Positions 16,862-33,211 of a DNA stretch of 55,459 nucleotides are shown in pieces; position 1 is the first letter of the stretch; each line of letters starts with the position of its first letter. Source of the stretch: Dongiaceae bacterium (GTDB taxonomy: Bacteria > Pseudomonadota > Alphaproteobacteria > Dongiales > Dongiaceae); NCBI GenBank assembly GCA_040902645.1, contig JBBDWW010000005.1, forward strand, positions 1 through 55,459. The letters are read 5' to 3'. Under the pieces are notes generated by a model. That model ran no database searches. It worked only from the letters and a program-made list of their open reading frames with translations, and was not told where the DNA came from. The position numbers were made by a program, and so were the translations under genes.

Positions 16862-19800
16862 TCAGAAACGGGTTCCGAAACCCCCAGCCTTCGCCCCGGG
16901 GGCGCCCTCCGGCTCGGGGAAGGTCAAGAAGATGCCGCAGGATTCCATGTCGAACTGCACGGCGCGCATGCGCGCGGCCGCTGGCGCATTCGGGTTGCGA
17001 TACCAGCCGGCAATCGCACGCGCACGTTCGGCCAGCATCGAATGCAATCGCGGCGGCTGACCTTCCGGCCTGAACCGGAGAAACCGTTCGGTGAGCCCGT
17101 CGACCGCCGACCAGTTCTTCTCCTCCAACCGAATCTCAATCGCGACCCGATAAAACCAGGGAACATTATGGGCCAGCGACTCGGCCAGCCGTGCCTCGCC
17201 TTCCTCCAGGAACCGGGTGCGCTCCGCTTCATCGTCGGCTGCCATTGCCGAATGGGCGCAACTAGACGGGCCGACGAATCCGAAGCCGGTTTCCTTGACG
17301 AGCGTGTTTGCTCGCGCACACAGTTCCTGTGCCAGCGCGCGGTTGCCCTCGAAATACTCGCATTCCGCACGCACGAGAAGAAACTGGGCCTCATATCGTT
17401 TTGCGCCCACTTTCGTGGCGAGCGCCATCCCCTGCTCGAGTGCCGGTTCCGTCGCGGTACAATTTCCACTCAGAGAGAGGCCCACACTGAGCGATACAAA
17501 GCCGAACACTTCGGCATAGGAATCATGCAAGGGCAGCGTCTTTTCGACCGCCTGGCGCATAAGCGCGATCGCGTCGGAAAACTTGGCCGAATAGGTGAGA
17601 CAATGCCCCCACATCAGCCGGTTCGGTTCGGCGATCCGAATCCGGTTGACGCTTTCCGCGAGGTCGACGCAGCGACGGAATGATTCAGCGGCGGCGATCC
17701 ATCGTCCGACTGCATAATCGGCATCGCCGAGTCCGCTCCACGCCATTGCTTCGAGCACCGGATCGGCGCGGCGGCGGGCGATCTCCAGCGCCGCCTCGTG
17801 CGCGCGGCGGCAAAGATCGGCCTGACCTAAGGCGAAATGCAGATTGCCGCGCAGATGGTGCATACGCCCGCGCACCGCGTCGTCGCCGGCATGGGCCAGC
17901 GGCTCAGCGCGGCCGAGGATGGCCAGCGCTGCTGCGCTTTCGCCGAGCAAACGCAAAGCGGCGGCCTGGCCGACCAGAGCCCGCAACTGCACCGAGTCAT
18001 CGCGCGAAAGCTCGTACGCCGCCTCACAGCATTCCAGGGCCGTACTGCCTTGGCCCAGATCGTGCAACAGCTCGCCCTCCTTGAGCTTGAGGGTTGCCTG
18101 CATCGCCGGGTTGCTCGCAACCAGACCGCCACGTCGCGCGAGCAACATGGCTTCCTCCGGCTTGAACGCGGTCTCACAAAATTCTGCTGCCCGAAGATAG
18201 GCCTGCGCTGCCGCGGGATCCTCGGCGCGTTCGAGATGCTCCGCATGGAGCGCCGGGTCGCGCTCCGTATACCAGGTTGCGATTCGTCCATGGATCTCAT
18301 GCCGGCGCGCTCGCAACATCGACGCGTTGATACCGTCGCGAATGAGCGCGTGCGCGAACATATAACCTTCGCCTTCGCGTCGCAGGAACAACTCGTCGAC
18401 CAGCACGCTACATTGTCGATCGGCGTCATCGTGCAAAGCACGGAGCAACTCGAAGGGAAATCGTTGCCCGATCGCGGCGGCCGTCTGCAATACGGAACGC
18501 GCCGGCGGATCGAGCCGGTCCATGCGCGCCTGCACCAGACTTTGCACCGTGCCCGGCAGATTGCCGGCAGCGGTTCCCGCGCTCTTGAGGAGTTGCACCA
18601 GAAACAGGGGATTGCCCTCGGCGCGTGCAATGCAATTTGCGATGATTCCATCGGGCGCGGAAGCGATTGCCCCGGCCAGTGCCGCCGCTTCGCCCTGTCG
18701 CAGCGGCGGCAGGTCCACGATCAGAATCGCCGCATCACGCGCCGCGGAGCGCCAGGCGCGATCGAATGGATCGCCCTCGAGTCGCGTCGTCATGATCAGC
18801 ATGCCAGGGCACTCCGACAATCCCCGAGCAAGCCGGGCCAACGCGGCCAATGTCGTAGCATTCGCCCAGTGCACGTCCTCGACCACGACGAGCAAAGGCT
18901 GTCGCCGCCGTGCAAAGCGGCGGCACATGCGGGCGACGGTGCGGCTTCGACCATCCGCGCGCACGCGCGGCGCCATCGCATCGTAGACAGCCTGCAATTC
19001 CGGCGGCTGCGGAAGATTGAACAGGTCGTTGAGAAAGCCTGCTTCTTCGGTATCAGCCAATCCTTCGGCAATGGCCCGCGCAACCGCTCGTTCGCGATCG
19101 ACCGCCGGCGCATTAGAATCGACCGCCAGCAGCGCATGCGCGATTTGTCGAATCGGATCCGCGCCGGAGGCCGCACCGAAATCGAGCGCATGGGCGATGA
19201 TCCCATGAAATCCTGAATCGGCAGCCTTGCGAAGAAGTTCTTCGATCAGGCGTGTCTTGCCCATCCCGGCTTCGCCGCGAACCACCAAAGCCTGGCCGTA
19301 GCCGCTAACACTGCAGCTCTCGAGCGCTCCAGTCAGCTGCGCGAGTTGGGCGGCACGGCCGATAAACGGTGCCGACTCGCCGGTGCCGCGCTCTCCGGCG
19401 AGCGCGGTCAGGCGCCAGACCGGAAGGTCGTCGACAAACCCCTTCAGCGATTGGAGACCGATCGGCTCGACAATCGCATTGCCGGCGAGGGTCGTCTCGA
19501 TCATCTGATCGATCAGGATTTCCCCGGGTGCCGCGCGTGCCTGCAGGCGCGCCGCCAGATTCACCGCCTCGCCGGTTACCGTGTACTCGCGATGATGCGC
19601 ACTGCCGGTCGAATCCGCGACGACCGCACCGGCCGCGAGACCGATGCGAATCCGGATCGGCTCGACCTCGGCATCCAACGCGGCAAACGCACTCTGGATC
19701 TGCAGAGCCGCCGCGGCCGCGCGTCGCGTGTCGTTGCCATGAGCAATAGGCGCGCCGAAGACAGCCATGACCGCGTCGCCGATATGCTTGTCGACATGGC

Positions 19801-20053
19801 CGCCATGATCCGTAATCACCTGGTCGACGACTTGGAAGAAGCGCATCAGCAGCGCATGGACGTCTTCGGCATCCAGTCGCTGTGTGAGGTCGGTGTACCC
19901 GGCGATATCGGCAAAAAGAATAATCGCGTGGCGCCGCTCGCCGGCGGGGGGGTTCGGCGTCGTGTCGGTGGCTACAGCCTCGGCGCCGCACGCACCGCAG
20001 AACCGGGCACCGGTATCGATTGCCGCGCCGCACGCCGTGCAGAAGCGCGGCAT
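16862..20053 (-). CDS. zinc-ribbon / class III adenylate-guanylate cyclase / AAA(STAND) ATPase / TPR multidomain protein
   Basis: Track ORF of 1063 aa. The N-terminal zinc ribbon reads CTACGAAIDTGARFCGACG. Cyclase motifs are ILFADIAGYT, KHIGDAVMAVFGAP and GEAVNLAARLQ. Walker A is GEAGMGKTRL. The C-terminus is a long helical-repeat region. Confidence 0.85.
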   Translation of the reverse strand: MPRFCTACGAAIDTGARFCGACGAEAVATDTTPNPPAGERRHAIILFADIAGYTDLTQRLDAEDVHALLMRFFQVVDQVITDHGGHVDKHIGDAVMAVFGAPIAHGNDTRRAAAAALQIQSAFAALDAEVEPIRIRIGLAAGAVVADSTGSAHHREYTVTGEAVNLAARLQARAAPGEILIDQMIETTLAGNAIVEPIGLQSLKGFVDDLPVWRLTALAGERGTGESAPFIGRAAQLAQLTGALESCSVSGYGQALVVRGEAGMGKTRLIEELLRKAADSGFHGIIAHALDFGAASGADPIRQIAHALLAVDSNAPAVDRERAVARAIAEGLADTEEAGFLNDLFNLPQPPELQAVYDAMAPRVRADGRSRTVARMCRRFARRRQPLLVVVEDVHWANATTLAALARLARGLSECPGMLIMTTRLEGDPFDRAWRSAARDAAILIVDLPPLRQGEAAALAGAIASAPDGIIANCIARAEGNPLFLVQLLKSAGTAAGNLPGTVQSLVQARMDRLDPPARSVLQTAAAIGQRFPFELLRALHDDADRQCSVLVDELFLRREGEGYMFAHALIRDGINASMLRARRHEIHGRIATWYTERDPALHAEHLERAEDPAAAQAYLRAAEFCETAFKPEEAMLLARRGGLVASNPAMQATLKLKEGELLHDLGQGSTALECCEAAYELSRDDSVQLRALVGQAAALRLLGESAAALAILGRAEPLAHAGDDAVRGRMHHLRGNLHFALGQADLCRRAHEAALEIARRRADPVLEAMAWSGLGDADYAVGRWIAAAESFRRCVDLAESVNRIRIAEPNRLMWGHCLTYSAKFSDAIALMRQAVEKTLPLHDSYAEVFGFVSLSVGLSLSGNCTATEPALEQGMALATKVGAKRYEAQFLLVRAECEYFEGNRALAQELCARANTLVKETGFGFVGPSSCAHSAMAADDEAERTRFLEEGEARLAESLAHNVPWFYRVAIEIRLEEKNWSAVDGLTERFLRFRPEGQPPRLHSMLAERARAIAGWYRNPNAPAAARMRAVQFDMESCGIFLTFPEPEGAPGAKAGGFGTRF

Positions 20054-20186: not shown

Positions 20187-20780
20187 TCAGACATCGGCCT
20201 GATAGGGTGGCGCTGGATCATACTGGATCATCTTCTGCACGCGTCGGGCAAAATTCGGATCCCAGATCTCGCCGACCAGCCACAGCGCCATGTCGATCCC
20301 GGCCGATACGCCGGCGGCCGTCACCAGATTGCCGTCGCGGACATAACGTGGCCCGTCCAGCACCTCGGCGCGGCCGAGCGCCCGCAAGGCCGGTATGAAA
20401 TCCCAATGGGTGGTGACCCGCTTGCCGTCGCACAGCCCGGCCGCAGCCAGCAGCAGCGAGCCGGTGCACACACTGGTCACCCATTGGCAGTTCCGGGCGA
20501 CGCCGGCGATCCAGTCCAGCAGCATGCGATTGGTTGCCTCGCGGCGCGTCCCTTCGCCGCCCGGCACCAGGATGATATCGAGGCGCGGCGCATCGTCGGT
20601 CGTCGCATCCGGCAACACGCGCATACCGTTGGCACAGGTGACCGGCCCGTCACGCTCGGCGATCAGCAGGACGCGCGTGCCCTCGCGCTCGTAGGCCGCA
20701 GCGCAGAGAACCTCCCAGGGACCAACAAAATCGAGTTCCTCGACGCCGTCGAAGATCAGGATGCCGATGGTCGGTATCAT
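20187..20780 (-). CDS. DJ-1/PfpI family protein
   Basis: Track ORF of 197 aa. It has the nucleophile-elbow motif SVCTGSLLLAAAGL and the family layout (ILIFDGVEELDFVGP...). Confidence 0.85.
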   Translation of the reverse strand: MIPTIGILIFDGVEELDFVGPWEVLCAAAYEREGTRVLLIAERDGPVTCANGMRVLPDATTDDAPRLDIILVPGGEGTRREATNRMLLDWIAGVARNCQWVTSVCTGSLLLAAAGLCDGKRVTTHWDFIPALRALGRAEVLDGPRYVRDGNLVTAAGVSAGIDMALWLVGEIWDPNFARRVQKMIQYDPAPPYQADV

Positions 20781-20792
20781 GGTGGCTCTCCT

Positions 20793-21551
20793 CTAATGCG
20801 TCGCCCGGTGCAGACCGCCATCGACCAGGATCGTCTGGCCGGTGATGTACGAGGATTTGTTCGACGCGAAATACAGCACCGCATCGCCGATCTCGTCCAT
20901 GCGGGCGGCGCGCTGCATCGGGATTTCGCGCAGCGCCGCGTCGGTCAGGTCGATATTCTCGGCGAAGCCCGGCAGCAGGTTGTTCATGCGCACATGGTCG
21001 CGCGCATAGCGGTCGGCAAAAAGCTTGGTGAAACCGTGCAGCGCCGCCCGCAATGTCGAGAGCGGGAAATTCCCCTGCGGTTCGATCGCCGCGATCGAGG
21101 AGATGTTCACGAACGCACCGCCGCCCTGCCCGATCATGATCGGCGCCGCGGCGCGGGCCGCGCGGATAACCGAGAGAACATAGGAATCGAATCCGGCCTG
21201 CCAGGTGGCATCCTCGATATCGAGCAGGCTCACCGGATTGTCGGCGTCAAAGCCGATCGTTTTGAGCGGCCAGTCCGGGCCGCGCGGAATCTTGCCGTGA
21301 CCCATCGAGGTGACGACGGCATCGATCCGGCCCCATTCCGACATGGCTTGCTTGACCAGCGCGTCGAGGTCGGCGGATTCGCGATTCGAGCCCTGACGGC
21401 CGATGCCGCCGAGTTCCTTTGCCAGTTCCATGCTACGAGGCGACGGCGACATCAGCGCAACCTTGAACCCGCCCGCTGCCAGTGCGCGGGCCGCCGCGGC
21501 ACCGAGGCCCGAGCCGGCCCCCGTTACGATCGCAACCCTGGTCTCCGCCAT
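20793..21551 (-). CDS. SDR family oxidoreductase
   Basis: Lies within the track ORF 20793..21596. ATG 21551 is preceded by AAGGAG. The sequence reads MAETRVAIVTGAGSGLG (TGxxxGxG). Confidence 0.85.
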   Translation of the reverse strand: MAETRVAIVTGAGSGLGAAAARALAAGGFKVALMSPSPRSMELAKELGGIGRQGSNRESADLDALVKQAMSEWGRIDAVVTSMGHGKIPRGPDWPLKTIGFDADNPVSLLDIEDATWQAGFDSYVLSVIRAARAAAPIMIGQGGGAFVNISSIAAIEPQGNFPLSTLRAALHGFTKLFADRYARDHVRMNNLLPGFAENIDLTDAALREIPMQRAARMDEIGDAVLYFASNKSSYITGQTILVDGGLHRATH

Positions 21552-21611
21552 CGCACGCTCCTTCTGGTTATCAGGCTGCGGCTTTTGCGCCGGCAAACCT
21601 TATACTAGCCC

Positions 21612-22238
21612 GTGAACCGATCCGACGGACCAGCGCGCGAAACGATGGCAGACACATCCAGAAACAAAGCGCGGCGGGCCGGGCGTTCCCCCATCGGAAC
21701 CATGCCGGCCTTCTTTCCCGCCAGGCTGGCGCCGCGGCAACTCTTGTTGAGCCAGACGCTCGCCTATGGCGTCGGGCTCGCCTTGCCGGCTCTCGTGGGC
21801 ATCATTTTCGCAGCCGTCTATGGCGAGTACTGGGCGCTGGCCTTGCCGGTTCCATTCGCAATGGTGCTGGGGATCGCCGCATCGTTCCGGCCGCGCGGCT
21901 TCCTGGTCGACGCGCAGCGCATCGCCGTCGTGCGCACGATCGGCCCGATCACATGGCCTTTGTCCGATGTCGCGATCCTGCGTGCACCGCCGGTCTGGGG
22001 GCCGACCAAACCGCTCGCACTCATGGCGACGAGGGGTCTGTTTGGAACCTATGGCTGGTTCTGGAACCGCGACTGGGGCGCGCACCGGATCTATATGACC
22101 GACCCGGACGAGGCGGTCGAAATCGAGCTGACCAGCGGCCGGCATATCGTGGTGACGCCGGCTTCGCATCGCGATTTTGTTGCAGCCGTGCGCGATGCGG
22201 CGAAGAACGCGGGGATCGCAATCCAGATCGAGCAGTAA
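21612..22238 (+). CDS. membrane protein with a bacterial PH (bPH_5-like) domain
   Basis: Track ORF of 208 aa. It has two TM helices, then GLFGTYGWFWNRDWGAHRIYMTDPDEAVEIELTSGRHIVVTPASHRDFV, resembling bacterial PH-domain proteins. The start is uncertain. Confidence 0.5.
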   Translation: MNRSDGPARETMADTSRNKARRAGRSPIGTMPAFFPARLAPRQLLLSQTLAYGVGLALPALVGIIFAAVYGEYWALALPVPFAMVLGIAASFRPRGFLVDAQRIAVVRTIGPITWPLSDVAILRAPPVWGPTKPLALMATRGLFGTYGWFWNRDWGAHRIYMTDPDEAVEIELTSGRHIVVTPASHRDFVAAVRDAAKNAGIAIQIEQ

Positions 22239-22278: not shown

Positions 22279-23817
22279 TTAACGCAGCGCGGCGCGCGCC
22301 ACCTTGCCGGTCGCGGTCAATGGTAGCGAGGGCCGGAACTCGATCGAATCCGGCACCATCCAGGTTGGCATGCGATCGGCAAGCCAGCCGCGCAGCGCAT
22401 CGGAATCGGCCGAGGCGCCGGGATTGAGCACGATATAGGCCTTGGCACGTTCGCCGAGCACGCCGTCCGGTACGCCGACGACGGCAGCGAGCGAAACCTG
22501 CGGATGTGCGCAGAGTGCATTCTCGACCGCGGTCGGATCGATGCGGTGATAGCCGCTCATGATCTTGTCGTCGAGGCGGCCGAACACCACGAGATGCCCG
22601 TCCGTATCGATCAACCCGCCATCGCCGGTGCGGTACCAGCCGTTCTGCAGCACCCGCGCGGTTTCCTTGGGCATGTTGTAATAGCCCTTCATCACGCCGG
22701 GCGAGGCGACCGCAATTTCGCCCTCAACACCCATCGGACGGATCGAACCGTCTTCGGCAAGGATACGCACCTTCACCCCGGGGATCGGCCGACCGACCTT
22801 GCCGCGCACATAGCCGTCGCGTTCGAGGCACCAGGAAACCGCCGTCGTGGTTTCGGTCGCGCCATAGCCCGGCAGGATCGGCACGCCGAACTGGGCGACG
22901 AATTCCTCGTACCAGCTCAGCGGAAAGGCCGCCCCGCCGGTGACGCATAGTTTCAGATTGCGGCGAATCGCGGCGATGTCCGCCTTGTCCGCATGCGCGA
23001 TCAGATCGTGATAGAAGATCGGCATCTCAAGTAAATACGTGATGCCCTCGTCGGCAATGATCTTCAGCACCTCTTCGGGATCGCGCGTATCGCAGAGTAC
23101 GATCGTATTGGCCATGAAGACCGGCAGCAGCAGCAAGAAGAGCTGCGCCATGATGCCTTCGTAATCGCCCGGCGCCAGACGGCGGTCGCAGGCTTCGGGT
23201 GCGGCGAGCGGCATCGTCAGCAGCGTCATTGCCGCGATATTACCGTGCGTGATCTGCGCGCCCTTGCGCACGCCCATCGTACCCGAGGTGAACGCGATCG
23301 TCGCGACCTCGTCGGGCATCACCGGGGCTGCGGGAACATCGCCATGGCGCGTCTCGAACCAGTGGCTGATCAGCGCGTATTCCGATTTCATTTCGTCGGA
23401 TATCGGATCCATCGGCAGCGTCCAGACCGGTATCTGCCGGCCGGTATCCTGCACGGCTCCGAGCAGCGTTTCGGCCAGCTCGTCGCTGCCGCGCTCGGAG
23501 GAACAGATGATCGCGTCGATATCGCATTCCTTGATCACCTCGGCGAATTCGCCCCGGGTCCAGAGGTGATCGAAACCGACCAATGTGGCGCCGGTCTTGA
23601 TAATACCAAAATAGGCGGCGACGAAACCCGGACGCAGCGTCGTACAGAGCGCGACGCGGCTGCCGCGACCGAGGCCGCGCCGCAGCAGTTCGACCGTCAA
23701 TCCGTTCGCCATCGACTGGATCTGGCTGTAGGTGAACGACCGGCTGCGATGACGCACCGCGATCACATCGGGACAGCGCCGCGCGCTCGAATCGAGATAT
23801 GTCGCGATGTTGAGCAT
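22279..23817 (-). CDS. ANL-superfamily adenylating enzyme (acyl/aryl-CoA ligase), paralogue A
   Basis: Track ORF of 512 aa. Motifs present: FTSGTMGVRKG, GYGATETT, YRTGD, GRLDDKI and the C-terminal LTATGKVAR lysine. It is the last gene of the luxI-linked operon. Confidence 0.85.
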   Translation of the reverse strand: MLNIATYLDSSARRCPDVIAVRHRSRSFTYSQIQSMANGLTVELLRRGLGRGSRVALCTTLRPGFVAAYFGIIKTGATLVGFDHLWTRGEFAEVIKECDIDAIICSSERGSDELAETLLGAVQDTGRQIPVWTLPMDPISDEMKSEYALISHWFETRHGDVPAAPVMPDEVATIAFTSGTMGVRKGAQITHGNIAAMTLLTMPLAAPEACDRRLAPGDYEGIMAQLFLLLLPVFMANTIVLCDTRDPEEVLKIIADEGITYLLEMPIFYHDLIAHADKADIAAIRRNLKLCVTGGAAFPLSWYEEFVAQFGVPILPGYGATETTTAVSWCLERDGYVRGKVGRPIPGVKVRILAEDGSIRPMGVEGEIAVASPGVMKGYYNMPKETARVLQNGWYRTGDGGLIDTDGHLVVFGRLDDKIMSGYHRIDPTAVENALCAHPQVSLAAVVGVPDGVLGERAKAYIVLNPGASADSDALRGWLADRMPTWMVPDSIEFRPSLPLTATGKVARAALR

Positions 23818-23821
23818 GGCG

Positions 23822-25366
23822 CTATGTACCGCGCAGCGCCGCGCGGGCGACTTTGCCGGTGGCGGTCAAGGGCAAGTTTAGCCGGAACTCGATCAGGTCG
23901 GGAACCATCCAGGCCGGCATCTGATCGGCGAGCCAGTCGCGCAGTGCATCCGGATCGGCCGGAACGCCGGGATTGAGAACGATGAACGCTTTGGTCCGCT
24001 CGCCGAGCACGTCGTCGGGAACGCCGATGACCGCTGCAAGCGACACGCCCGGATGCGCACAGAGCGCATTCTCGACGGCAGTCGGATCGATGCGGTGATA
24101 GCCGCTGGTGATCTTGTCGTCGAGACGGCCGATGACGACCAGATGCCCGTCGCCATCGATCAGTCCGCGATCGCCGGTCATGTACCAGCCGTTCTGCAGC
24201 ACGCGCGCGGTATCCTTGGGCATTCCGAAATAGCCCTTCATCACGCCAGGCGACGAGACCGCAATCTCGCCTTCGGATTCCGCGGGCCGGACAGAACCGT
24301 CTTCGGCGAGGATGCGCAGCTTCACGCCGGGAATCGGGCGGCCGACCTTACCGCGCACATAGCCGTCGCGCTCGAGACACCAGGTAACCGCCGTAGTCGT
24401 TTCGGTCGCGCCATAGCCCGGCAGGATCGGCGTACCGTAGAGCCTGACGAACTCTTCGTACCAGGCCGGCGGAAAGGCGGCGCCGCCGGTCACGCAGATC
24501 TTCAGATTGCGGCGAATAGTAGCGGTATCGGCCTTGCCGGCATGTGCGATCAGGTCGTGATAGAAGATCGGCATCTCGAGCAGATAGGTGATGCCTTCGG
24601 TCGCGATCATCCGCAGCACTTCGTCCGGATCCCGGGTGTCGCACAGCACGATCGTGTCGCCCATGAAGATCGGCGCCAGCAGCAGGAAGAACTGCGCCAT
24701 GATGCCTTCATATTTGCCCGGTGCCAGGCGCCGCGCACAGGCCTCGCGCGCCGCGAGCGGCATAGTCAGAAGCGTCATCGCATAGAGATTGCCGTGCGTG
24801 ATTTGCGCACCCTTGCGCACGCCGGTCGTACCCGACGTAAAGGCGATGGTCGCGACCTCGTCGGGCGCCACCGACGCAGCGGCCACATCGCTGTTCGGCA
24901 TCGCATGCCATTCCGATACCGAAGCAAAACCGGTGCCGGGTGTGTTTGCGCCGGGCGTGACCGGCAAGGTCCAGATCGGAACCGGCCGGCCGGTGGCGAC
25001 TACCGCCGCCGCCAGCGTCTCAGCGAGCACGCTGTCGCCCCGATCGGCCGAGCAAATGATCGCATCGACCTCGCAATCCTCGATCAGGCGCTCGAAATCA
25101 TGGCGGTTCCAGGCATCGTCGAACCCGACCAGCGTCGCGCCGGTCTTGAGGATGCCGAAGAACGCCGCAACGAAACCGGGGCGGACCGTCGAACAGAGCG
25201 CGACCCGACTGCCGCGACCGATGCCGTTGGTCATCAGACCGATCGCCATGCTGTCGGCCATCGCCTGAATCTGGCGATAGGTGTAGGAGCGGCCACGATG
25301 GCGCACCGCGACGGCATCGGGCAGCCGCCGCGTGGTCGAGTCGAGATAGGTGGCGACGTTAAGCAT
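23822..25366 (-). CDS. ANL-superfamily adenylating enzyme (acyl/aryl-CoA ligase), paralogue B
   Basis: Track ORF of 514 aa. It carries the same motif set (FTSGTTGVRKG, GYGATETT, YMTGD, GRLDDKI, LTATGKVAR) and is collinear with paralogue A along its whole length. Confidence 0.85.
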   Translation of the reverse strand: MLNVATYLDSTTRRLPDAVAVRHRGRSYTYRQIQAMADSMAIGLMTNGIGRGSRVALCSTVRPGFVAAFFGILKTGATLVGFDDAWNRHDFERLIEDCEVDAIICSADRGDSVLAETLAAAVVATGRPVPIWTLPVTPGANTPGTGFASVSEWHAMPNSDVAAASVAPDEVATIAFTSGTTGVRKGAQITHGNLYAMTLLTMPLAAREACARRLAPGKYEGIMAQFFLLLAPIFMGDTIVLCDTRDPDEVLRMIATEGITYLLEMPIFYHDLIAHAGKADTATIRRNLKICVTGGAAFPPAWYEEFVRLYGTPILPGYGATETTTAVTWCLERDGYVRGKVGRPIPGVKLRILAEDGSVRPAESEGEIAVSSPGVMKGYFGMPKDTARVLQNGWYMTGDRGLIDGDGHLVVIGRLDDKITSGYHRIDPTAVENALCAHPGVSLAAVIGVPDDVLGERTKAFIVLNPGVPADPDALRDWLADQMPAWMVPDLIEFRLNLPLTATGKVARAALRGT

Positions 25367-26609
25367 TGCCGCGCGCCTCGCTGGATACCGGCGTCGACGA
25401 GTCCGACCGCATCAATGGCAGCAGAATGACCAGACCTGTGGCGATGATAGCCGCTGCGACACCGACCAGGAACGGGGCCGACGGCGAAATCACCTGGAAC
25501 ACGAAACCGCCGAGCAGCGGACCGATGATCCAGGCGGCGTTCGTGCCGGTATGGCAGAGCCCCATCGCTGCGCCCTGCTCGTTCGCCGGTGCCGCTTTGG
25601 AGAACAGGCTGGCATAACAGGAATTGGCGGTCGCAGCGCCGGCACCGGCGAGCGTCATCGCGGCCAGCAGCGACCATGGCTCGATCCAGAAGACCGGCAA
25701 TAACAGGCTGCCAGCCACCACCAATGTCGAGGCGATCGAAAGCGGCACCAGGCCGAACCAGCGTGCCGCCCGCTCGGTGAACCAGAACTGGGTCACGAAG
25801 CCCGCGACGCCGGCGGCCAGATAGGCCAGCGACAATTCGGTCGCACCCCAATTGAGTCGCACACTCGTCCAAACCCCGACGGTGCCGTCGAGCTGTGCCC
25901 AGACGAGCGCGAGCACTGTCATCGCGGCGATGGGTAGCGCGAAAGCACGCGTCAGCATCGTCGCCGAGATTCCGTGCCCGAGCCATCGAAGCTTGCCGAG
26001 GCCGACCGAGCGGGCCTCGGGAGGTACCAGAATCATCTCGACCGGTTTTGCCTGGGTCGACGCCGGGACGATCCGGCGCAGCAGCAAAGCCGCGAGCACC
26101 AGCGTGACAATCGCAATGCCGGTGACAGCCCAGCCGATCGTCACATGCGAATCATTGGACATCCGGCTCAGCAGATAAGCGATCAGCGGACCGACCACAA
26201 AAGCCAGCGCCCAGGCGCCGTTGAAATGCGCCATCCCGCGCGTGCGGGATTCTTCGTCAGTTGCATCGGCGATATAGGCCTGAAGCACCGGTATAGCCGC
26301 GGCCCCGAGACCGGCGAGGCCGCGGGCTACCAGAAGCCAGAAATAACTGTCGCCCATGGCCAGAACCGCATTGGAGAGCGGCATCACGGCGAGCGTCAGC
26401 AGGATGACGGGCTTGCGGCCGATATGGTCACTGAAGCGGCCCCACAGGAACGCGGTGAGCACCAGCATCAGGGTATCGAATGCCATAACGAACGCGACCA
26501 TGAACGGCGACGCCCCGAGCTCCATCGCGCGATAGGGCATCACGGGTGTCACAATCGCCAAGCTGAGCATGGCGAGAAAGACCAGGAGCACGGGCCTGCG
26601 CATGGTCAA
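25359..26609 (-). CDS. MFS transporter (drug:H+ antiporter-like)
   Basis: Track ORF of 416 aa. It has the MFS motif A-like sequence GRFSDHIGRKPVILL and about 12 TM helices. It lies 11 nt after the P450 stop and overlaps the ligase B start by 8 nt. Confidence 0.85.
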   Translation of the reverse strand: MTMRRPVLLVFLAMLSLAIVTPVMPYRAMELGASPFMVAFVMAFDTLMLVLTAFLWGRFSDHIGRKPVILLTLAVMPLSNAVLAMGDSYFWLLVARGLAGLGAAAIPVLQAYIADATDEESRTRGMAHFNGAWALAFVVGPLIAYLLSRMSNDSHVTIGWAVTGIAIVTLVLAALLLRRIVPASTQAKPVEMILVPPEARSVGLGKLRWLGHGISATMLTRAFALPIAAMTVLALVWAQLDGTVGVWTSVRLNWGATELSLAYLAAGVAGFVTQFWFTERAARWFGLVPLSIASTLVVAGSLLLPVFWIEPWSLLAAMTLAGAGAATANSCYASLFSKAAPANEQGAAMGLCHTGTNAAWIIGPLLGGFVFQVISPSAPFLVGVAAAIIATGLVILLPLMRSDSSTPVSSEARGNA

Positions 26610-26620
26610 TATGTTCGATG

Positions 26621-28012
26621 TCAGTTTCGGGTGCGGATGCGTGCCATGATCGGTCCACTCGGCCGAAGCGTGATCATTGGCTCCGGCACGACATTCTGCC
26701 CGGGTTCGATTTCAACTTCGAAACGGCGCAGCAGCAGCCCTAAAATGACTCGCGCTTCCCACAGCGCGAACTGCTCGCCAAGGCAGCGCCGCGGGCCGCC
26801 GCCGAAGGGGAAATAGGAATAACGATCGGATCCGCGCTCGTCGCGTCCCGCGAAACGTTCCGGCCGGAATGCGTCGGGATCAGGCCACAGCTCGGGATTC
26901 CGCTGCACGGCATAGGGACAGAGAATCATGTTTGTGCCGGCCGCAATCGGCATATCCTCGAACCGGTCGTCCTCGATTGCCGCGCGCGACATCGTCCAGA
27001 CCGGCGGATAGAGCCGCATGGTCTCATGGAACACCTGACCGACATAGTCGAGCCGGCGCAACGCATCGATGGTCGCTTCGCCCGACGGCATCACATTGTC
27101 GATTTCCTCGCGCATGCCCCGCATGGCTTCGCGATGCTTGTCCCCGATCCACCAGACCCAGCTCAGCGCATTGGCGGTCGTTTCGTGCCCGGCCAAAATA
27201 AAACTGCGGACCTCGTCGATCAGCAGATTAGGCGCCGGCCCATCGGCCGGACGATCGCTATAGGCGGCGATGAAGATATCGAGCAGATCGCCGCGCGGCG
27301 AGCCCTCTTTCTGGCGCTGCACCACAATGGATTCGACGAACTCGTCGATCACGCGCTGCGCCGCGGCAACGCGGCGATTGCGAGGCGTCGGAACGCCAAA
27401 GGGGATATTGACCACCGCCCAGACCCGGCGTTCGGCATCGCGCAGCAGAAATGTCAGCGCGCTGTAAATCGATTCATAGCGATCGTCGAGCGTGACGCTG
27501 AATAACGCGCGCATGATGATGTCGAGGGTGACCCGCATCATTTCTTCGGCAAGATCGACCGGCCGGCCGCGCCGCGCTTCCTCTTCCCAGCGCCGAACCA
27601 TGTCCGATGCCGCGTCGTTCATCGCAGCAACCAGCCGCGGATATTCGAAGCCCTGAAAGCCTTTTGCCGATGTCCGACGCTGGGCGAGCCAGGCATCGCC
27701 TTCGGCGAGAAAGATGCCGTCGCCGAGCATCGGCTTCAGCAGCGCCACATAATCGCTCTTCCGATAGTTCCGCGCGTTGTCTTGCATCACATGCTTGATC
27801 AACGCAGGCGACGTCGGAAAGAGAGCGCGCCGGAATCCGAGCCGCATTTCCACGGCCCGACCCGGGATGCGACCCAGTTGGGCGAAGAATGCGAGCGGAT
27901 CCCGGCGCAGTTGCGGGAGGACACCGACGATCGGCCAGCCCGGCACACGGGCAATCCGGGAGGAGGCAGGGCATTGAACCGTACCCGGAGCAGCCGTCGA
28001 GATTGCCATCAA
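26621..28012 (-). CDS. cytochrome P450 (E-class, CYP4/CYP102-like motifs)
   Basis: Track ORF of 463 aa. Motifs: I-helix AGHETTAN, K-helix ETMRLYPP, FRPERF, and the heme loop FPFGGGPRRCLGEQFA. GGAGG lies upstream of the TTG 28012 / ATG 28009 start. Confidence 0.9.
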   Translation of the reverse strand: MMAISTAAPGTVQCPASSRIARVPGWPIVGVLPQLRRDPLAFFAQLGRIPGRAVEMRLGFRRALFPTSPALIKHVMQDNARNYRKSDYVALLKPMLGDGIFLAEGDAWLAQRRTSAKGFQGFEYPRLVAAMNDAASDMVRRWEEEARRGRPVDLAEEMMRVTLDIIMRALFSVTLDDRYESIYSALTFLLRDAERRVWAVVNIPFGVPTPRNRRVAAAQRVIDEFVESIVVQRQKEGSPRGDLLDIFIAAYSDRPADGPAPNLLIDEVRSFILAGHETTANALSWVWWIGDKHREAMRGMREEIDNVMPSGEATIDALRRLDYVGQVFHETMRLYPPVWTMSRAAIEDDRFEDMPIAAGTNMILCPYAVQRNPELWPDPDAFRPERFAGRDERGSDRYSYFPFGGGPRRCLGEQFALWEARVILGLLLRRFEVEIEPGQNVVPEPMITLRPSGPIMARIRTRN

Positions 28013-28030
28013 TGGCGTCCTCCCGATCCC

Positions 28031-28318
28031 TCAAGCGTCATGCGGACGACCATTGGCCCGGCGCTGGCTGAAAGACGGGTGTGCGTTGTCGTTGTCGCGC
28101 GCAGCCATCTGCGCCGACACGATCTTTACAGAATGGGTGATCGATTCACGAATGCTCTGGCCGGCAACGCCGATCAGGTGCGATTCGAAGACGAGATTGA
28201 TCCGCAAAGCGACCTCCTGCAGATACTGCAGGCTTTCGATGATCGCGTGTGCTTCGCGCATCTGTTCGGTCGAGCGCAGGGCCGTCGGCTCGAGCGTTTC
28301 GCTCTTGGTCATAGGCAT
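28031..28318 (-). CDS. 95-aa orphan protein between luxI and the P450 (hypothetical; candidate quorum-sensing modulator)
   Basis: This is the C-terminal part of the track ORF 28031..28651. ATG 28318 is preceded by AAAGGAG with a 7-nt spacer. It starts 37 nt after the luxI stop. The sequence is MPMTKSETLEPTALRSTEQMREAHAIIESLQYLQEVALRINLVFESHLIGVAGQSIRESITHSVKIVSAQMAARDNDNAHPSFSQRRANGRPHDA. It looks helical with a polar tail. I recognise no family. Confidence 0.55.
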   Translation of the reverse strand: MPMTKSETLEPTALRSTEQMREAHAIIESLQYLQEVALRINLVFESHLIGVAGQSIRESITHSVKIVSAQMAARDNDNAHPSFSQRRANGRPHDA

Positions 28319-28355
28319 TCCAATGCTCCTTTGGGCATGGGAGAAGTCGGGAAGA

Positions 28356-28997
28356 TCAGGCAGCCCGTTCGAGCTGCGCCGGCAGGCCATGGGCGAGCAC
28401 GGATTCGCGAATACCTGTCGCCTGTTCGATATTGGCGAGAACGTCCCGATTGATCGGGAACCATCCGGCCAATGCTTTGGTGATGCCGATCCGGCGAACC
28501 GCCGTGGTTTGCCGTGGCCGGCAACCGACCCGCGGCAGAATGCGCGCAACGCGAAGGTCATAAACGGTGACCATCTCGTTGATGCCGTTTTCCATGCAGA
28601 ACTCGACCATGCCGTGGAACAGCTCACCGGTGATGCTGTTGATGGCGGCAAGCCCGTCGCGACAGCCCTGCGGCATATCGACCGAGAAGCGGCTGCATTC
28701 CCAGATTCGCGGATGCTGCGGTGCCGGTTGGCCTTCCAGCAGCTCCGGGAACGTATCTTTCAGCATGTAGGGGCCTGTCGTGGGCAACAGACGCCACGAG
28801 CCAACCACTTCTTCCTGGTCGTCGAGTGCCAGCAGATAGACCGGATCGAGCTTGTCGAACTCGTCGCGCTCTTCGCCGTCCTCGACCTCAACGTCCCAGC
28901 CAAGCCGGTCGCGGAACACGCGACAGCGCAGCCGATGCATCTGGCGCAGCAGTTCCGGGTAAAACCGGGCGTTCTGCCGTGTAACAGTGAGGATCAT
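28356..28997 (-). CDS. LuxI-family acyl-homoserine-lactone synthase
   Basis: Lies within the track ORF 28356..29057. ATG 28997 is preceded by GGGGAGG. The sequence MILTVTRQNARFYPELLRQMHRLRCRVFRDRLGWDVEVEDGEERDEFDKLDPVYLLAL...WRLLPTTGPYML...ECSRF closely parallels TraI-type synthases. Confidence 0.9.
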   Translation of the reverse strand: MILTVTRQNARFYPELLRQMHRLRCRVFRDRLGWDVEVEDGEERDEFDKLDPVYLLALDDQEEVVGSWRLLPTTGPYMLKDTFPELLEGQPAPQHPRIWECSRFSVDMPQGCRDGLAAINSITGELFHGMVEFCMENGINEMVTVYDLRVARILPRVGCRPRQTTAVRRIGITKALAGWFPINRDVLANIEQATGIRESVLAHGLPAQLERAA

Positions 28998-29072
28998 GAC
29001 AACCTCCCCAAAGAAAACCTCGGGGGACAACCAATCATGATGCTCCGACTCCCACACCCCGCCAGAACTGGT

Positions 29073-29100
29073 GGGATTTCAGAAATCGACATTTGATCCC
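29073..29100 (-). promoter_or_regulatory. imperfect dyad upstream of luxI (weak candidate LuxR-type operator)
   Basis: The minus strand reads GGGATCAAATGTCGATTTCTGAAATCCC. The outer arms GGGAT/ATCCC are perfect. The inner 18-mer TCAAATGTCGATTTCTGA pairs at 6 of 9 positions about a centre offset by 1 nt. It lies 76 to 103 nt upstream of the luxI ATG. It is not a canonical lux or tra box. Confidence 0.2.
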
Positions 29101-29161
29101 CCGAAGCAGGACCATCGAATCCGTCATCGCGACGAGCCGCCAAGTATCGGTCGCCGGAATC

Positions 29162-29195
29162 AAAAAAACGGGAGCGCCCTAAGAACGTCCCGTTT
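29162..29195 (-). terminator. rho-independent terminator after luxR
   Basis: On the minus strand: AAACGGGA, a 14-nt loop, TCCCGTTT, then TTTTTTT. It begins 30 nt after the luxR stop and separates luxR from luxI. Confidence 0.6.
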
Positions 29196-29224
29196 CGAGT
29201 TTGTTGGATAGCCTCTGGGGCTGT

Positions 29225-29956
29225 TTACGGGACGATAAGGTTGAGTGTGATGGCCTTGACCACGGCATGGTGCTTTGAATGCACGCCCATCTTGTCCATC
29301 ACCGCGCGGAGATAGAAGCGCACGGTATCTTCTGAAAGCTTGAGGATCGCCGCACATTCCCATGTGGTCTTGCCGCGTGCGGTCCAAAGCAGGCAATCGC
29401 GCTCGCGATCGGTCACATGGACGGCGTCGCGATCATCGGCTGTCCGCCACAGCATCAGGGCGCCGTCATGCGCACCCAGAACGACGAGCTGGAGTGCTGA
29501 GCGGATTTCCGGCCATTCCCGGGCAAGCTCCTTCTCGCCGCGATCGAAGCTGGCGCCGAACACGGTGTAACCATTGCCCGGCCCATGAATCGGCATGGTG
29601 ACACCGCTGCGCAGGCCGAAGTCGCGCGCTTCTTGGAACATCTTGCGCCCGCGCCGGGTCATCGAGGGATCGGTTTCGAGCTCGTCCCAGCGAACCGGCC
29701 GCAAACCACCCGACACCGCATGGATTGTCGGATCGGTCGCGACATAGTCCTTGTCGATATAATGGGCGGTCCACTCTTCCGGGTAGGTCGTCATATAGCG
29801 CGGTGCGAAGCAACCTTCGCAGTTCCGGATGACCGTATAGGTCCAGGCGCCCACGCCGATTTCATCGAGCGATCGCGACAACCGCGGCTTCAGGTCGGCC
29901 GGGTCGGTGAGATCCGCGAATTTCTCAATTGAATCAAAGTACTGCTGAACACCCAT
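29225..29956 (-). CDS. LuxR-family AHL-responsive transcription factor
   Basis: Track ORF of 243 aa. The autoinducer-binding signature residues are in the expected order (EEW..HY....Y.ATDP....RPVRW). The C-terminal HTH reads RERDCLLWTARGKTTWECAAILKLSEDTVRFYLRAVMDKMG. Confidence 0.9.
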   Translation of the reverse strand: MGVQQYFDSIEKFADLTDPADLKPRLSRSLDEIGVGAWTYTVIRNCEGCFAPRYMTTYPEEWTAHYIDKDYVATDPTIHAVSGGLRPVRWDELETDPSMTRRGRKMFQEARDFGLRSGVTMPIHGPGNGYTVFGASFDRGEKELAREWPEIRSALQLVVLGAHDGALMLWRTADDRDAVHVTDRERDCLLWTARGKTTWECAAILKLSEDTVRFYLRAVMDKMGVHSKHHAVVKAITLNLIVP

Positions 29957-30111: not shown

Positions 30112-31248
30112 TCAGCTTTTTTCGCCGAGCGCGATCAGCACTTTCATCTGGAAATCGTGGACCCCGTGCTCGGAAATATCGCTGCGGTCGGCATCGACGA
30201 CGAAACGGCCCTGCCGATAACCGAGCGAATGCAGGCCTTTCTGCACGCTCTCGCAGATCGGGATGTCCTCGAGCCGGACCTCGTGCACGAAATCGATGAC
30301 TTCGCGGTCGGCGGCGCTGGGCGCCTCGTAGGGGAAATACCACTCGCAGCGTTGCACGGATTGCTCCGGACCGATCGGCACATGGTGAAAGACCGTCAGA
30401 TTGCCGCCCGGATAGCTCTCGATCGACCAATTCGGCCATAAAAGCCAGCTTGCGAACTCGCCGGGCCGGTTCGAACCCTCGGTTCGGGTCGAATAGCCGG
30501 TGCTGGCGCCCTTGTCGCGACTGGAATGGCTATGGTGATGCTCGAATGTCACGACCCGGTATGAATCGACATCGAGCGCCCCGCTAACCAGGGTCTGATG
30601 CTGATTGGGGCAGTGATAGCACTCCGAATAATTCTCGACCGAGTTCTTCCAGTTGGCCTTCAGCGGATATTCGTCGCGATGCGCGCATTTGAGCGAGGCC
30701 GCATGCGGCGAGAAGGAGGCGATCTCGGCGGCCAGCGGCCCCGCGACCGTTTCGAAGGGCGGGGCCGACCCGTCGAGATTGACGAACAGGAAGCCGAGGA
30801 AGGATTCGAGCCGGACCGGCTTAAGCCCGAAGGCAGCCGGGTCGAACCCGGCGACCCGGTCGGTACCCCGCGCCTTGCGCAGATTGCCGCCAAGATCGTA
30901 GGTCCAAGTGTGATAAGGGCAGGTGATCGAGGCAGCCGGCAACTGCCCTTCGCCCTCGAGCAGCCGATGCGCCCGATGCTGGCAGACATTGAAGTAAGAT
31001 TTCAGCGCGCCCTCGCGGTCGCGCAGCACGATCACACTCTGATCGACGATTTCGCGCACGATATAGCGGCCCGGCGCCGCGAGCATCGAGACATGCCCGA
31101 CATATTGCCAGGTGCGATAGAAGATCGCGCGCTTCTCGCGCTCGAAGATCTCTGGGTCATGGTAGTAGAAGCCGGGCAGCGTATAGGAACGTGCAGGATC
31201 CCGGTCGATCCGCTGCAGCGCGTCGTGGGCAAGGTTCAAATGGCTCAT
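30112..31248 (-). CDS. Rieske [2Fe-2S] non-heme-iron oxygenase alpha subunit (choline-monooxygenase-like subgroup)
   Basis: Lies within the track ORF 30112..31422. ATG 31248 is preceded by GGGAG. The Rieske motif is CQHRAHRL...CPYHTWTY. The mononuclear-iron motif is ENYSECYHCPNQH. Confidence 0.85.
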   Translation of the reverse strand: MSHLNLAHDALQRIDRDPARSYTLPGFYYHDPEIFEREKRAIFYRTWQYVGHVSMLAAPGRYIVREIVDQSVIVLRDREGALKSYFNVCQHRAHRLLEGEGQLPAASITCPYHTWTYDLGGNLRKARGTDRVAGFDPAAFGLKPVRLESFLGFLFVNLDGSAPPFETVAGPLAAEIASFSPHAASLKCAHRDEYPLKANWKNSVENYSECYHCPNQHQTLVSGALDVDSYRVVTFEHHHSHSSRDKGASTGYSTRTEGSNRPGEFASWLLWPNWSIESYPGGNLTVFHHVPIGPEQSVQRCEWYFPYEAPSAADREVIDFVHEVRLEDIPICESVQKGLHSLGYRQGRFVVDADRSDISEHGVHDFQMKVLIALGEKS

Positions 31249-31409: not shown

Positions 31410-32399
31410 ATGATCGAGGCAATCGGGCTTTCGAAGCGTTACACGGTCTATCGCAAGGAGGCCGGTTTCGCCGGCAGCCTGCGCGCGTTCTTCCATCGCG
31501 AGCATTACGATGTCGACGCGGTGAGCGATCTCACGGTCCGCATAGGCCCCGGCGAGATCGTCGGGTTTCTCGGCCCGAACGGCGCCGGCAAGACGACCAC
31601 GCTCAAGATGCTGTCGGGACTGCTGCACCCTTCGTCCGGCAGCGTGAGCGTCGCCGGCTATACCCCGAAAGAGCGCGACCGGGAATTCCTGCGCTCGATT
31701 GCGCTTGTCATGGGACAGAAGATGCAGCTGCACTGGGATATCCCGGCGACAGACTTCTTCCTCGTGCTCAAGACGATCTACGATATTTCCAATGCCGATT
31801 ATCGTGCCCGGCTCGACGAACTCGTGGCCATGCTCGATCTCGGCGATCTGGTGAACCGGCCGATACGCCGGCTCTCGCTCGGCGAGCGCATGAAATGCGA
31901 ACTCGCGGCGGCACTCCTGCATCGGCCGCGCATACTTTTTCTCGACGAACCGACGATCGGACTCGATGTGACCGCCCAGGCGGCGATCCGGAATTTCATC
32001 ATCGACTATAACCGTCGCTACGGCGCGACCGTCCTCATCACGTCGCACTATATGGCGGACGTGACGGCGCTGGCGCGGCGTGTCCTGGTCATCGATCTCG
32101 GCCGCTTGGTGTTCGACGGCGATCTGCAGGCGCTGATCGAACGGCACAGTCCGGACAAGATTCTGCGCGTGCAGTTCGCCGAAGAGGTCGCGCCGGAGCG
32201 GCTCGCGCGGTTCGGCACGCTGCGGCAGCTCGACGGGCTCGTCGCCGAGATCGCCGTACCGCGCGCCAACATTGCCCGCCAGGCAGCCGACATTCTGGCG
32301 TCGCTGCCGGTTGCCGATATTGCGATCGAAGAGCCGGCCGTGGAAGACGTGATCCGGACCGTCTTCCGCACCGCCGGTACTGTCGGGAAACCCGTATGA
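31410..32399 (+). CDS. ABC transporter ATP-binding protein (ABC-2 type)
   Basis: Track ORF of 329 aa. It has Walker A (GPNGAGKTT), the signature LSLGERMKCELAAAL and Walker B (LFLDEP). Confidence 0.9.
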   Translation: MIEAIGLSKRYTVYRKEAGFAGSLRAFFHREHYDVDAVSDLTVRIGPGEIVGFLGPNGAGKTTTLKMLSGLLHPSSGSVSVAGYTPKERDREFLRSIALVMGQKMQLHWDIPATDFFLVLKTIYDISNADYRARLDELVAMLDLGDLVNRPIRRLSLGERMKCELAAALLHRPRILFLDEPTIGLDVTAQAAIRNFIIDYNRRYGATVLITSHYMADVTALARRVLVIDLGRLVFDGDLQALIERHSPDKILRVQFAEEVAPERLARFGTLRQLDGLVAEIAVPRANIARQAADILASLPVADIAIEEPAVEDVIRTVFRTAGTVGKPV

Positions 32400-33211
32400 C
32401 ACGGCGCCGCTTGGATCCCTTCCGGCCGTTTCGCCTCGCCCGCGCATTGGTCGCGCACAGCTTCAGCGAGTATGCGGCCTATCGCATGGAGATGGTGTTC
32501 TGGGTCGTGGGTGGCACGCTGCCTTTGTTCATGATGTTTCTCTGGATCGAGTTGGCCGAGCAACAGGCGACTGGCTCGTTTTCCGCCGCCGATTTTGCCG
32601 CGTATTTTCTGCTCGTCTTTCTGATGCGGCATATGACGCCCTTCGTTCCGGTGCCCGATCTTGAGCGCGCGATCCGGCATGGCGAGCTATCCGCACAGTT
32701 GCTGCGCCCGCTCGACCCCTATTGGCCGATGACCGCCTCGCAGTTGATGGACATTCTGCATCGACTGCCGATCACCATACCGGTGGTCATCGTCGGCATG
32801 ATCTGGTCCGGCGCCTGGCAAATAATCGCGTTCGAAGACTGGCCATTCTTTGTCGTCGCGGTCTTCGGTGCGATCCTGTTGCATTACAATCTGCTCTATT
32901 GCGCCGGGCTCGCCGCCTTCTGGATGGAGCGCGTCCGTGGCTTCGAAGGGCTGATGTGGAACGGCTATTTCGTACTGGGCGGCGGGCTTGCGCCGATCGC
33001 GCTTTTTCCCGATGTCGTGCAGCAGGTCGTCGTCTGGTCGCCATTCCGCTACATGATGAGTTTCCCGATCGAGATCGCGATCGGCCGCGTGGCGCCCGCC
33101 GATATGTGGTTCGGCTTCGCGCTCCTGGCCTTCTGGCTGGCGTTCAGCATCGGATTGATGCGCCTGCTTTGGCATCGCGGACTGCGCCGCTATGCGGCGT
33201 ACGGATCGTGA
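32396..33211 (+). CDS. ABC-2 family transporter permease
   Basis: Track ORF of 271 aa, a polytopic protein. It overlaps the ATPase stop by 4 nt. Confidence 0.75.
   Translation: MTRRRLDPFRPFRLARALVAHSFSEYAAYRMEMVFWVVGGTLPLFMMFLWIELAEQQATGSFSAADFAAYFLLVFLMRHMTPFVPVPDLERAIRHGELSAQLLRPLDPYWPMTASQLMDILHRLPITIPVVIVGMIWSGAWQIIAFEDWPFFVVAVFGAILLHYNLLYCAGLAAFWMERVRGFEGLMWNGYFVLGGGLAPIALFPDVVQQVVVWSPFRYMMSFPIEIAIGRVAPADMWFGFALLAFWLAFSIGLMRLLWHRGLRRYAAYGS

Follow-up and report, generated by a model that had tools for sequence, protein, structure and literature searches.

A luxI-led operon of a Dongiaceae bacterium that pairs an acyl-homoserine lactone synthase with a conserved small protein and a cytochrome P450, a candidate signal-tailoring enzyme

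The metagenomic contig JBBDWW010000005.1 (assembly GCA_040902645.1, Dongiaceae bacterium), of which we analyzed a stretch of 55,459 nucleotides (nt) referred to here as the window, carries a LuxR/LuxI quorum-sensing locus on its minus strand. In this locus, the gene luxI, which encodes the acyl-homoserine lactone (AHL) synthase, is followed by the gene of a small protein that we call X, a cytochrome P450 gene, a major facilitator superfamily (MFS) transporter gene and two genes for ANL adenylating enzymes, ANL1 and ANL2. An earlier reading made from the letters alone, hereafter the sequence-only reading, had described seven co-directional genes here; their coordinates and domains were all recovered, and its five junctions of 37, 18, 11, −8 and 4 nt were reproduced on recomputation. 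The luxI-X-P450 order recurs in many unrelated genomic contexts, and we tentatively propose that the P450 oxygenates the AHL signal or its precursor. The locus comprises the following genes and features.

29225..29956, minus strand: luxR, AHL-responsive transcription factor with Autoind_bind and GerE domains
29162..29195, minus strand: intrinsic terminator of luxR, a hairpin (−17.4 kcal/mol, z −3.6) with a U7 run after it
29058..29075, minus strand: lux-box-like dyad CCCACCAGTTCTGGCGGG, putative LuxR operator by symmetry, position and conservation
28356..28997, minus strand: luxI, AHL synthase, first operon gene (PF00765, E 7e-48)
28031..28318, minus strand: small protein X of 95 amino acids (aa), identified by its ribosome-binding site, its ratio of non-synonymous to synonymous substitutions (dN/dS) and its recurrence beside luxI
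26621..28012, minus strand: cytochrome P450 (PF00067, E 5e-85)
25359..26609, minus strand: MFS transporter, Tet(A)/DHA1-like, accessory (PF07690, MFS_1, E 5e-50)
23822..25366, minus strand: ANL1, acyl-CoA-ligase-like adenylating enzyme, accessory (AMP-binding and AMP-binding_C)
22279..23817, minus strand: ANL2, tandem paralogue of ANL1, last operon gene (AMP-binding and AMP-binding_C)
21612..22238, plus strand: bPH_5 (bacterial PH domain) gene, marking the 3' boundary of the operon (PF10882, E 4.6e-5)

Specifically, luxI and X are separated by 37 nt and X and the P450 gene by 18 nt (21 nt if the P450 starts at the ATG at 28009). The P450 and MFS genes are 11 nt apart, the MFS stop is overlapped by 8 nt by the start of ANL1, and 4 nt lie between ANL1 and ANL2. 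A GGGGAGG ribosome-binding site precedes the luxI ATG at 28997. The operon stops at ANL2 because the next gene, encoding the bPH_5 protein, is convergent; this gene is also called in a related locus (L002). A minus-strand open reading frame (ORF) at 21600-22169 was considered as a further operon gene and rejected as a shadow of the bPH_5 gene; it is only 40-70% conserved where neighboring genes reach 95%.

The hairpin and T-run that the sequence-only reading had noticed after luxR form a real terminator. LuxR can be aligned with LasR and TraR and keeps the ligand-pocket motifs YPxxW (here YPeeW), HY, DP (tDP) and RW (vrW); it has both domains of an AHL receptor and equivalents of LasR Y56, W60, D73 and W88. 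The dyad CCCACCAGTTCTGGCGGG has 8-2-8 symmetry, is centered ~70 nt upstream of the luxI ATG, occurs in a single copy in the window and is invariant among close relatives. The majority of the distant cassette loci have an equivalent G/C-rich dyad at the same offset, such as ACCCCCCAGTTCTGGGGGG in Pelagibius or CCTAGTAGATCTACTAGG in locus L044. As an 18-20 bp dyad kept in relatives, the element is of the lux-box promoter type and a putative LuxR operator. Together, the dyad, the conserved LuxR pocket, the luxR terminator and the short junctions support a LuxR-autoinduced polycistron led by luxI, and we infer co-transcription of luxI-X-P450-MFS-ANL1-ANL2. The sequence-only reading had argued for one transcript under LuxR/AHL autoinduction; the tight junctions, the conserved dyad and the synteny described below all speak for a functional unit that luxI leads and LuxR probably controls.

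Two other elements lie in the same upstream region. A second dyad, GATTTC-T-GAAATC (29075-29087, minus strand), abuts the lux-box-like dyad; in a relative (L009) it reads GGATTCC-G-GGAATCC, with changes on both arms that preserve the symmetry, and it may be an operator for another dimeric regulator. In the luxI leader (29003-29026, minus strand), CCCCC pairs in a stem-loop with GGGGAGG, the Shine-Dalgarno (SD) sequence of luxI. Comparable SD-sequestering hairpins are found in the luxI leaders of relatives, where the structure is conserved and the sequence is not. A cassette-specific role for this hairpin was rejected, as it is equally frequent at luxI loci that lack a P450 and its z-scores are modest; it may reflect general translational control of this LuxI group.

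To follow the locus across relatives, we used a LuxI profile to retrieve 80 metagenome loci, added targeted look-ups, scored the loci by tblastn and by a hidden Markov model of X, and clustered LuxI at 80% identity into 55 lineages. A P450 gene lies 250-525 nt downstream of luxI on the same strand in 20 of 42 evaluable lineages. X fills the gap between luxI and the P450 in 19 of these 20 lineages, and it is present in only one of the 22 P450-negative lineages. The P450-linked LuxIs form one clade in a rough neighbor-joining tree, and plain luxR-luxI pairs appear below ~47% identity to the window LuxI. The closest loci, with LuxI 93-98% identical, come from metagenome-assembled genomes (MAGs) labelled Dongiaceae or Rhodospirillaceae and are fully syntenic with the window, from a Rieske oxygenase gene upstream of luxR through a gene for a 1063-aa protein beyond the operon. 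At 78% LuxI identity, a relative has luxR-luxI-small ORF-P450-MFS and a single ANL gene; at 60%, in a wholly different neighborhood, only luxR-luxI-small ORF-P450 is found. Minimal cassettes consisting of luxR, luxI, X and P450 alone occur in eight lineages (for example L006, L012 and L096), and the full luxR-luxI-X-P450-MFS-ANL cassette is found in the cultured Pelagibius sp. CAU 1746 and in a Magnetovibrionaceae MAG. An MFS gene follows the P450 in 8 of 18 evaluable P450-positive lineages and an ANL gene in 7 of 16; in locus L094, a membrane-fusion protein (MFP) and an EmrB-like MFS pump take the place of MFS-ANL. The genes flanking the cassette are otherwise unrelated between lineages, so that the same order recurs in many unrelated contexts. 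The synteny search that the sequence-only reading had proposed was thus strongly positive: far from being confined to the window, the luxI-X-P450 order is conserved in ~20 lineages.

The association also holds when approached from the P450. All four P450 homologues that were looked up (42-46% identity) adjoin luxI-X, and at least 14 further pairs of LuxI and P450 matches lie on contigs of equal size. A P450 from a Skermanella plasmid, 37% identical, is not beside luxI and therefore marks the edge of the P450 clade. By protein matches only, a P450 homologue is present in P. marinus and P. litoralis, and X in the cultured Constrictibacter sp. MBR-5. No close DNA match to the window, which would have pointed to plasmid or phage origin, was found in PLSDB, and the locus appears chromosomal, in varied contexts among relatives.

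Several loci depart from the common arrangement. In the Magnetovibrionaceae MAG GCA_049603795.1 (L095), the core is embedded in a more extensive regulatory island, with genes for a SET-domain protein, a PraR-like XRE protein and another LuxR homologue after the cassette. In L040 and L041, a P450 homologue of 33-37% identity lies upstream of luxI on the opposite strand, an alternative arrangement. Two ENA contigs (L097 and L098) carry a full cassette whose luxR and luxI are parted by an insertion sequence with a DDE transposase; in L098, the P450 is moreover broken into two ORFs, a sign that the cassette may be decaying in this lineage.

The P450 is a 463-aa protein with a P450 domain only (PF00067, 286 bits). 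It contains the heme-thiolate loop FPFGGGPRRCLG at 401 (FxxGxRxCxG), ETMR at 330 (ExxR) and AGHETT at 274 (I-helix AGxxT). No diflavin reductase is fused to the domain, hence the enzyme is not a self-sufficient P450 of the CYP102 type; no signal peptide or membrane anchor was evident by eye in the N-terminus (no predictor was run). Its nearest solved structures are 7wzl, CYP97, CYP170A1, CYP4B1 and CYP102, and it belongs to a CYP4/CYP102/CYP97-like group. CYP102A1 (P450 BM3), of a related class, hydroxylates both AHLs and N-acyl amino acids on their acyl chains. However, BM3 is a reductase fusion that acts as a quencher in a Gram-positive organism without AHL synthesis, whereas the P450 of the window is reductase-free and encoded in a synthase operon. 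The hydroxylation of AHLs by CYP102A1 is among the work cited in PMC5479921, and the same paper reports a marine alphaproteobacterium that makes poly-hydroxylated long-chain AHLs, for which the enzymology is unexplained and a P450 has been proposed.

LuxI is a full-length synthase (PF00765 at 163 bits against a cut-off of 24) with homologues of ~213 aa. AHL diversity is usually attributed to the particular acyl-acyl carrier protein (acyl-ACP) or acyl-coenzyme A (acyl-CoA) substrate that LuxI takes. Against characterized synthases, LuxI scores 132 bits with LasI (E 1.5e-37), 90 with TofI, 76 with BjaI and 62 with RpaI, and it is 41-49% identical to plasmid TraI. The NCBIfam TraI models NF052393 and NF010408 give 179.8 and 181.6 bits, below their equivalog cut-offs of 250 and 292 bits, and the protein is thus TraI-like and no TraI equivalog. 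Bit scores, for which similarity is only a proxy for substrate, do not place it in the acyl-CoA-using BjaI/RpaI/BraI clade. Because it is TraI/LasI-like, LuxI probably uses acyl-ACP; the caution in the sequence-only reading that the synthase resembles acyl-ACP-type TraI and lends no support to a CoA route is upheld by these scores. The nearest characterized synthases therefore belong to the TraR/TraI-trb systems of rhizobial and Agrobacterium conjugative plasmids and to LasR/LasI. In the traI-trb system, traI heads a LuxR-activated operon; unlike that system, the window locus has no trb or conjugation genes.

The two ANL proteins are full-length, as the sequence-only reading had held, with both domains and intact adenylation motifs A3, A5, A7, A8 and A10: TSGTTGVRKG in ANL1 and TSGTMGVRKG in ANL2, followed by YGATE, YxTGD, GRLDD and PLTATGK. 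They are 75% identical and hence a tandem duplication. A single ANL gene is found in relatives at or below 78% LuxI identity; both genes in the window are intact, and what had been counted as two adenylating enzymes is better described as one enzyme recently duplicated. Their best subfamily model is PRK06187 ('long-chain fatty-acid-CoA ligase'), at 322 and 318 bits and below its 476-bit cut-off, and they are closest to fatty-acyl or feruloyl-CoA synthetases. The transporter scores 171 bits with MFS_1; Tet(A)-type efflux models are its best NCBIfam matches, far below their cut-offs, and a crude hydropathy scan gives 13 hydrophobic segments, several of them overlapping. The MFS and ANL genes would be accessory, either ancestral and repeatedly lost or repeatedly gained.

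The small protein X, which the sequence-only reading had called an orphan, belongs instead to a conserved gene family that is probably regulatory. Its ATG follows a strong Shine-Dalgarno sequence (AAGGAG, 8 nt before the start), and its dN/dS of ~0.07 against relatives, similar to that of LuxI and the P450, indicates purifying selection. The family shares the core AxAIxxCLxYLxxEAxxxGLxxxAHLIGVAAEA, ranges from 57 to 116 aa and was found in 23 LuxI lineages. No Pfam or NCBIfam model matches X, and a single-sequence phmmer search of 1.8 billion representatives returned one cluster only. A profile built from copies located by synteny retrieved 93 clusters, all annotated 'hypothetical' and without a Pfam domain. 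In an AlphaFold2 model, X folds into a hairpin of two helices (residues 11-39 and 43-77), and the predicted local distance difference test (pLDDT) score exceeds 95 over residues 21-60.

Of the known small proteins considered for X, a TraM anti-activator was rejected, with no family match and TraM not among the 50 Foldseek matches listed; an ACP, ferredoxin or MbtH-like helper was rejected in view of the hairpin fold, the lack of an invariant Ser or Cys and the lack of a Trp motif. Specifically, X is neither a carrier protein nor a ferredoxin because the family has no position with an invariant Ser or Cys; the window copy contains no Cys at all. A tblastn search of plasmids with an X homologue found nothing. 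Locus L099 has the order XRE-luxR-luxI-X without a P450, which ties X to the synthase rather than to the P450. In position, X resembles regulators of the CinS/MmaP type: it is co-directional with luxI, starts 37 nt after it and is conserved as coding sequence. CinS and MmaP are small proteins that are co-transcribed with luxI homologues and bind the XRE factor PraR (PMC10790750, PMC4149787). In CinR/CinI/CinS of Rhizobium leguminosarum and MmaR/MmaI/MmaP of Methylobacterium fujisawaense, as here, a small ORF directly follows the synthase gene of an alphaproteobacterial luxR-luxI pair. Those ORFs encode 59-67 aa, against 57-116 aa in the X family, and are co-transcribed with the synthase; the cin and mma loci have no reported P450, MFS or ANL gene, unlike the present cassette (PMC10790750, PMC4149787). 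PraR-like XRE genes (motif TFQQIQKYERGxNR) stand beside luxR in at least ten related loci, recalling cin and mma. By this positional analogy, X is a probable CinS/MmaP-like regulator.

These observations suggest the following model. luxR would be transcribed alone, ending at its own terminator. The dyad at 29058-29075 is probably the site from which AHL-bound LuxR drives a single luxI-X-P450-MFS-ANL1-ANL2 transcript. LuxI probably makes an AHL from acyl-ACP, and the co-expressed soluble P450 would oxidize the acyl chain, either on this AHL or on its acyl precursor. An oxygenated AHL would thus be exported as the signal, and the synthase alone would not set its structure. X, made together with the synthase, would most likely titrate a transcription factor in the manner of CinS and MmaP. 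The MFS protein could serve as an optional mover of an amphipathic acyl compound and the ANL enzymes in optional fatty-acid activation, for supply or salvage. Gene content, operon boundaries, conservation, the operator-like dyad and the standing of X as a real gene are shown by the sequences; what the P450 acts on, what X binds and what MFS and ANL do are inferred.

Tailoring of the signal by the P450, one form of a broader suggestion in the sequence-only reading (a quorum-controlled small molecule, or a signal-tailoring or turnover module), is the reading we favor, at somewhat less than even confidence. The minimal cassettes offer the P450 no substrate of their own making other than the AHL or its precursor; because such four-gene cassettes exist and the P450 clade adjoins luxI-X whenever checked, the LuxI product or its acyl precursor is the simplest substrate for the P450. 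A number of findings pull the other way. The best NCBIfam matches of the P450 are terpenoid oxidases, far below their cut-offs, and homology leaves its substrate unfixed; the cassette encodes no redox partner; and LuxR has a canonical AHL pocket with nothing that demands an unusual ligand. For X, a Foldseek search of the PDB with the model gave no match at E ≤ 0.001, only generic hairpins, and no PraR-like gene is adjacent to the cassette or present elsewhere in the window. The P450 could be a quorum-controlled output instead of a tailoring enzyme, acting, with or without MFS and ANL, on a cellular or environmental lipid or terpenoid unrelated to the signal; its place on the luxI transcript would then make it the chief target of the circuit. 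This is a rather unlikely account, although it draws on the terpenoid oxidases among the best family matches, on the ordinary LuxR pocket and on downstream content that varies by lineage (MFS-ANL, MFP-MFS or nothing), and luxI-led operons with output genes, such as luxICDABE and traI-trb, are classical. However, the minimal four-gene cassettes carry no other biosynthetic gene beside the P450, the cassette neighborhoods are unrelated, and the P450 clade (at least 40% identity) stands beside luxI-X in every case checked, an exclusivity unusual for a generic output.

Two further accounts give the ANL enzymes a larger part. The P450 could inactivate the AHL by omega or sub-terminal oxidation, with ANL feeding the product into beta-oxidation, as a built-in negative feedback. 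RpfB, an acyl-CoA ligase encoded beside the synthase of the diffusible signal factor, is a turnover enzyme and offers a parallel. The P450 is related to CYP4 and CYP102, and oxidation of AHLs by CYP102A1 is an established quorum-quenching reaction according to work cited in PMC5479921. Such turnover is nonetheless improbable: synthase and destroyer would wastefully be made from one transcript at a fixed ratio, over half of the cassette lineages lack ANL, and no lactonase or acylase is linked to the locus. In the first hypothesis of the sequence-only reading, taken here with the MFS protein as importer of the acid, the ligases make a CoA thioester from an exogenous or P450-modified acid, and LuxI condenses it into a non-standard homoserine lactone, as in RpaI and BjaI systems. 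RpaI, BraI and BjaI do show that LuxI homologues can take CoA-activated acids supplied by ligases, and the LplT/Aas pair, which imports and activates its substrate, resembles an MFS protein with an acyl-activating enzyme. Wherever the MFS-ANL pair occurs, moreover, it keeps its order and its place behind the P450, even between deeply diverged lineages. However, the window LuxI scores far higher with LasI and TraI than with BjaI and RpaI and is more distant from the latter than from LasI, the clade can do without the ligase (ANL is missing from 9 of the 16 cassette lineages that could be evaluated, all of which still keep luxI-X-P450), and the MFP and EmrB-like pump of L094 point to export. With the ligases outside the core and X and the P450 as the constant partners of luxI, this route is a distinctly improbable basis for the locus.

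Returning to tailoring by the P450, a wider form of it, in which a Rhodospirillales-like clade signals with AHLs oxygenated after synthesis by the operon P450, LuxR prefers the oxidized form and X couples the circuit to an XRE regulator, is possible and more speculative. This clade would take in Dongiaceae, Pelagibius, Magnetovibrionaceae, Constrictibacter and many uncultured lineages. In Streptomyces, the biosynthesis of avenolide (Aco and the P450 Cyp17) provides a precedent for a P450 in the making of a bacterial autoregulator; its signal chemistry, synthase and receptor family are unrelated to those of the present locus. To our knowledge, AHL quorum sensing has so far no established example of tailoring by a dedicated P450 after the synthase step. 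A LuxI clade with its own genetically linked P450 would be, as far as we know, the first systematic instance in which a signal or its precursor is enzymatically edited. If the proposal is right, an AHL signal or its precursor is enzymatically edited after synthesis in ~20 lineages, and the cassette becomes a genetic candidate for the unexplained poly-hydroxylated AHLs of marine bacteria (PMC5479921). The idea is directly testable in culture, since the complete cassette is present in Pelagibius sp. CAU 1746. Were the P450 only an output gene, the locus would still be a tidy conserved quorum-sensing regulon, of ordinary interest.

Operons led by luxI are in themselves already known, from luxICDABE and traI-trb to cinIS and mmaIP (PMC10790750), and the statement in the sequence-only reading that AHL synthases normally stand alone was too strong. 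As far as our searches show, the novelty lies in a P450 locked to a LuxI clade and in a new small-protein family: literature searches found no description of a luxI-P450 cassette, and one survey lists unrelated P450s within 'hserlactone' antiSMASH regions. X represents a previously unannotated family tied to luxI that takes the idea of CinS and MmaP well past rhizobia and methylotrophs.

The neighborhood of the operon contains other genes. Directly upstream of luxR on the same strand, a gene for the alpha subunit of a Rieske ring-hydroxylating oxygenase (30112-31248, minus strand) was considered as a cassette member and rejected, since its conservation with the cassette is limited to the Dongiaceae lineage, where it reaches down to 78% LuxI identity. 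Divergent from it, at 31410-33993 on the plus strand, lie genes for an ATP-binding cassette (ABC) ATPase and two ABC-2 membrane proteins, with no link to the cassette seen. Past the bPH_5 gene, a short-chain dehydrogenase/reductase (SDR) and a DJ-1/PfpI protein are encoded at 20187-21596 (minus strand); they form a separate unit because the convergent bPH_5 gene intervenes, and they are syntenic only in the closest relatives. The same closest relatives alone share the synteny of the gene at 16862-20053 (minus strand), whose 1063-aa product combines a zinc ribbon, a class III cyclase, an AAA/STAND module and TPR repeats.

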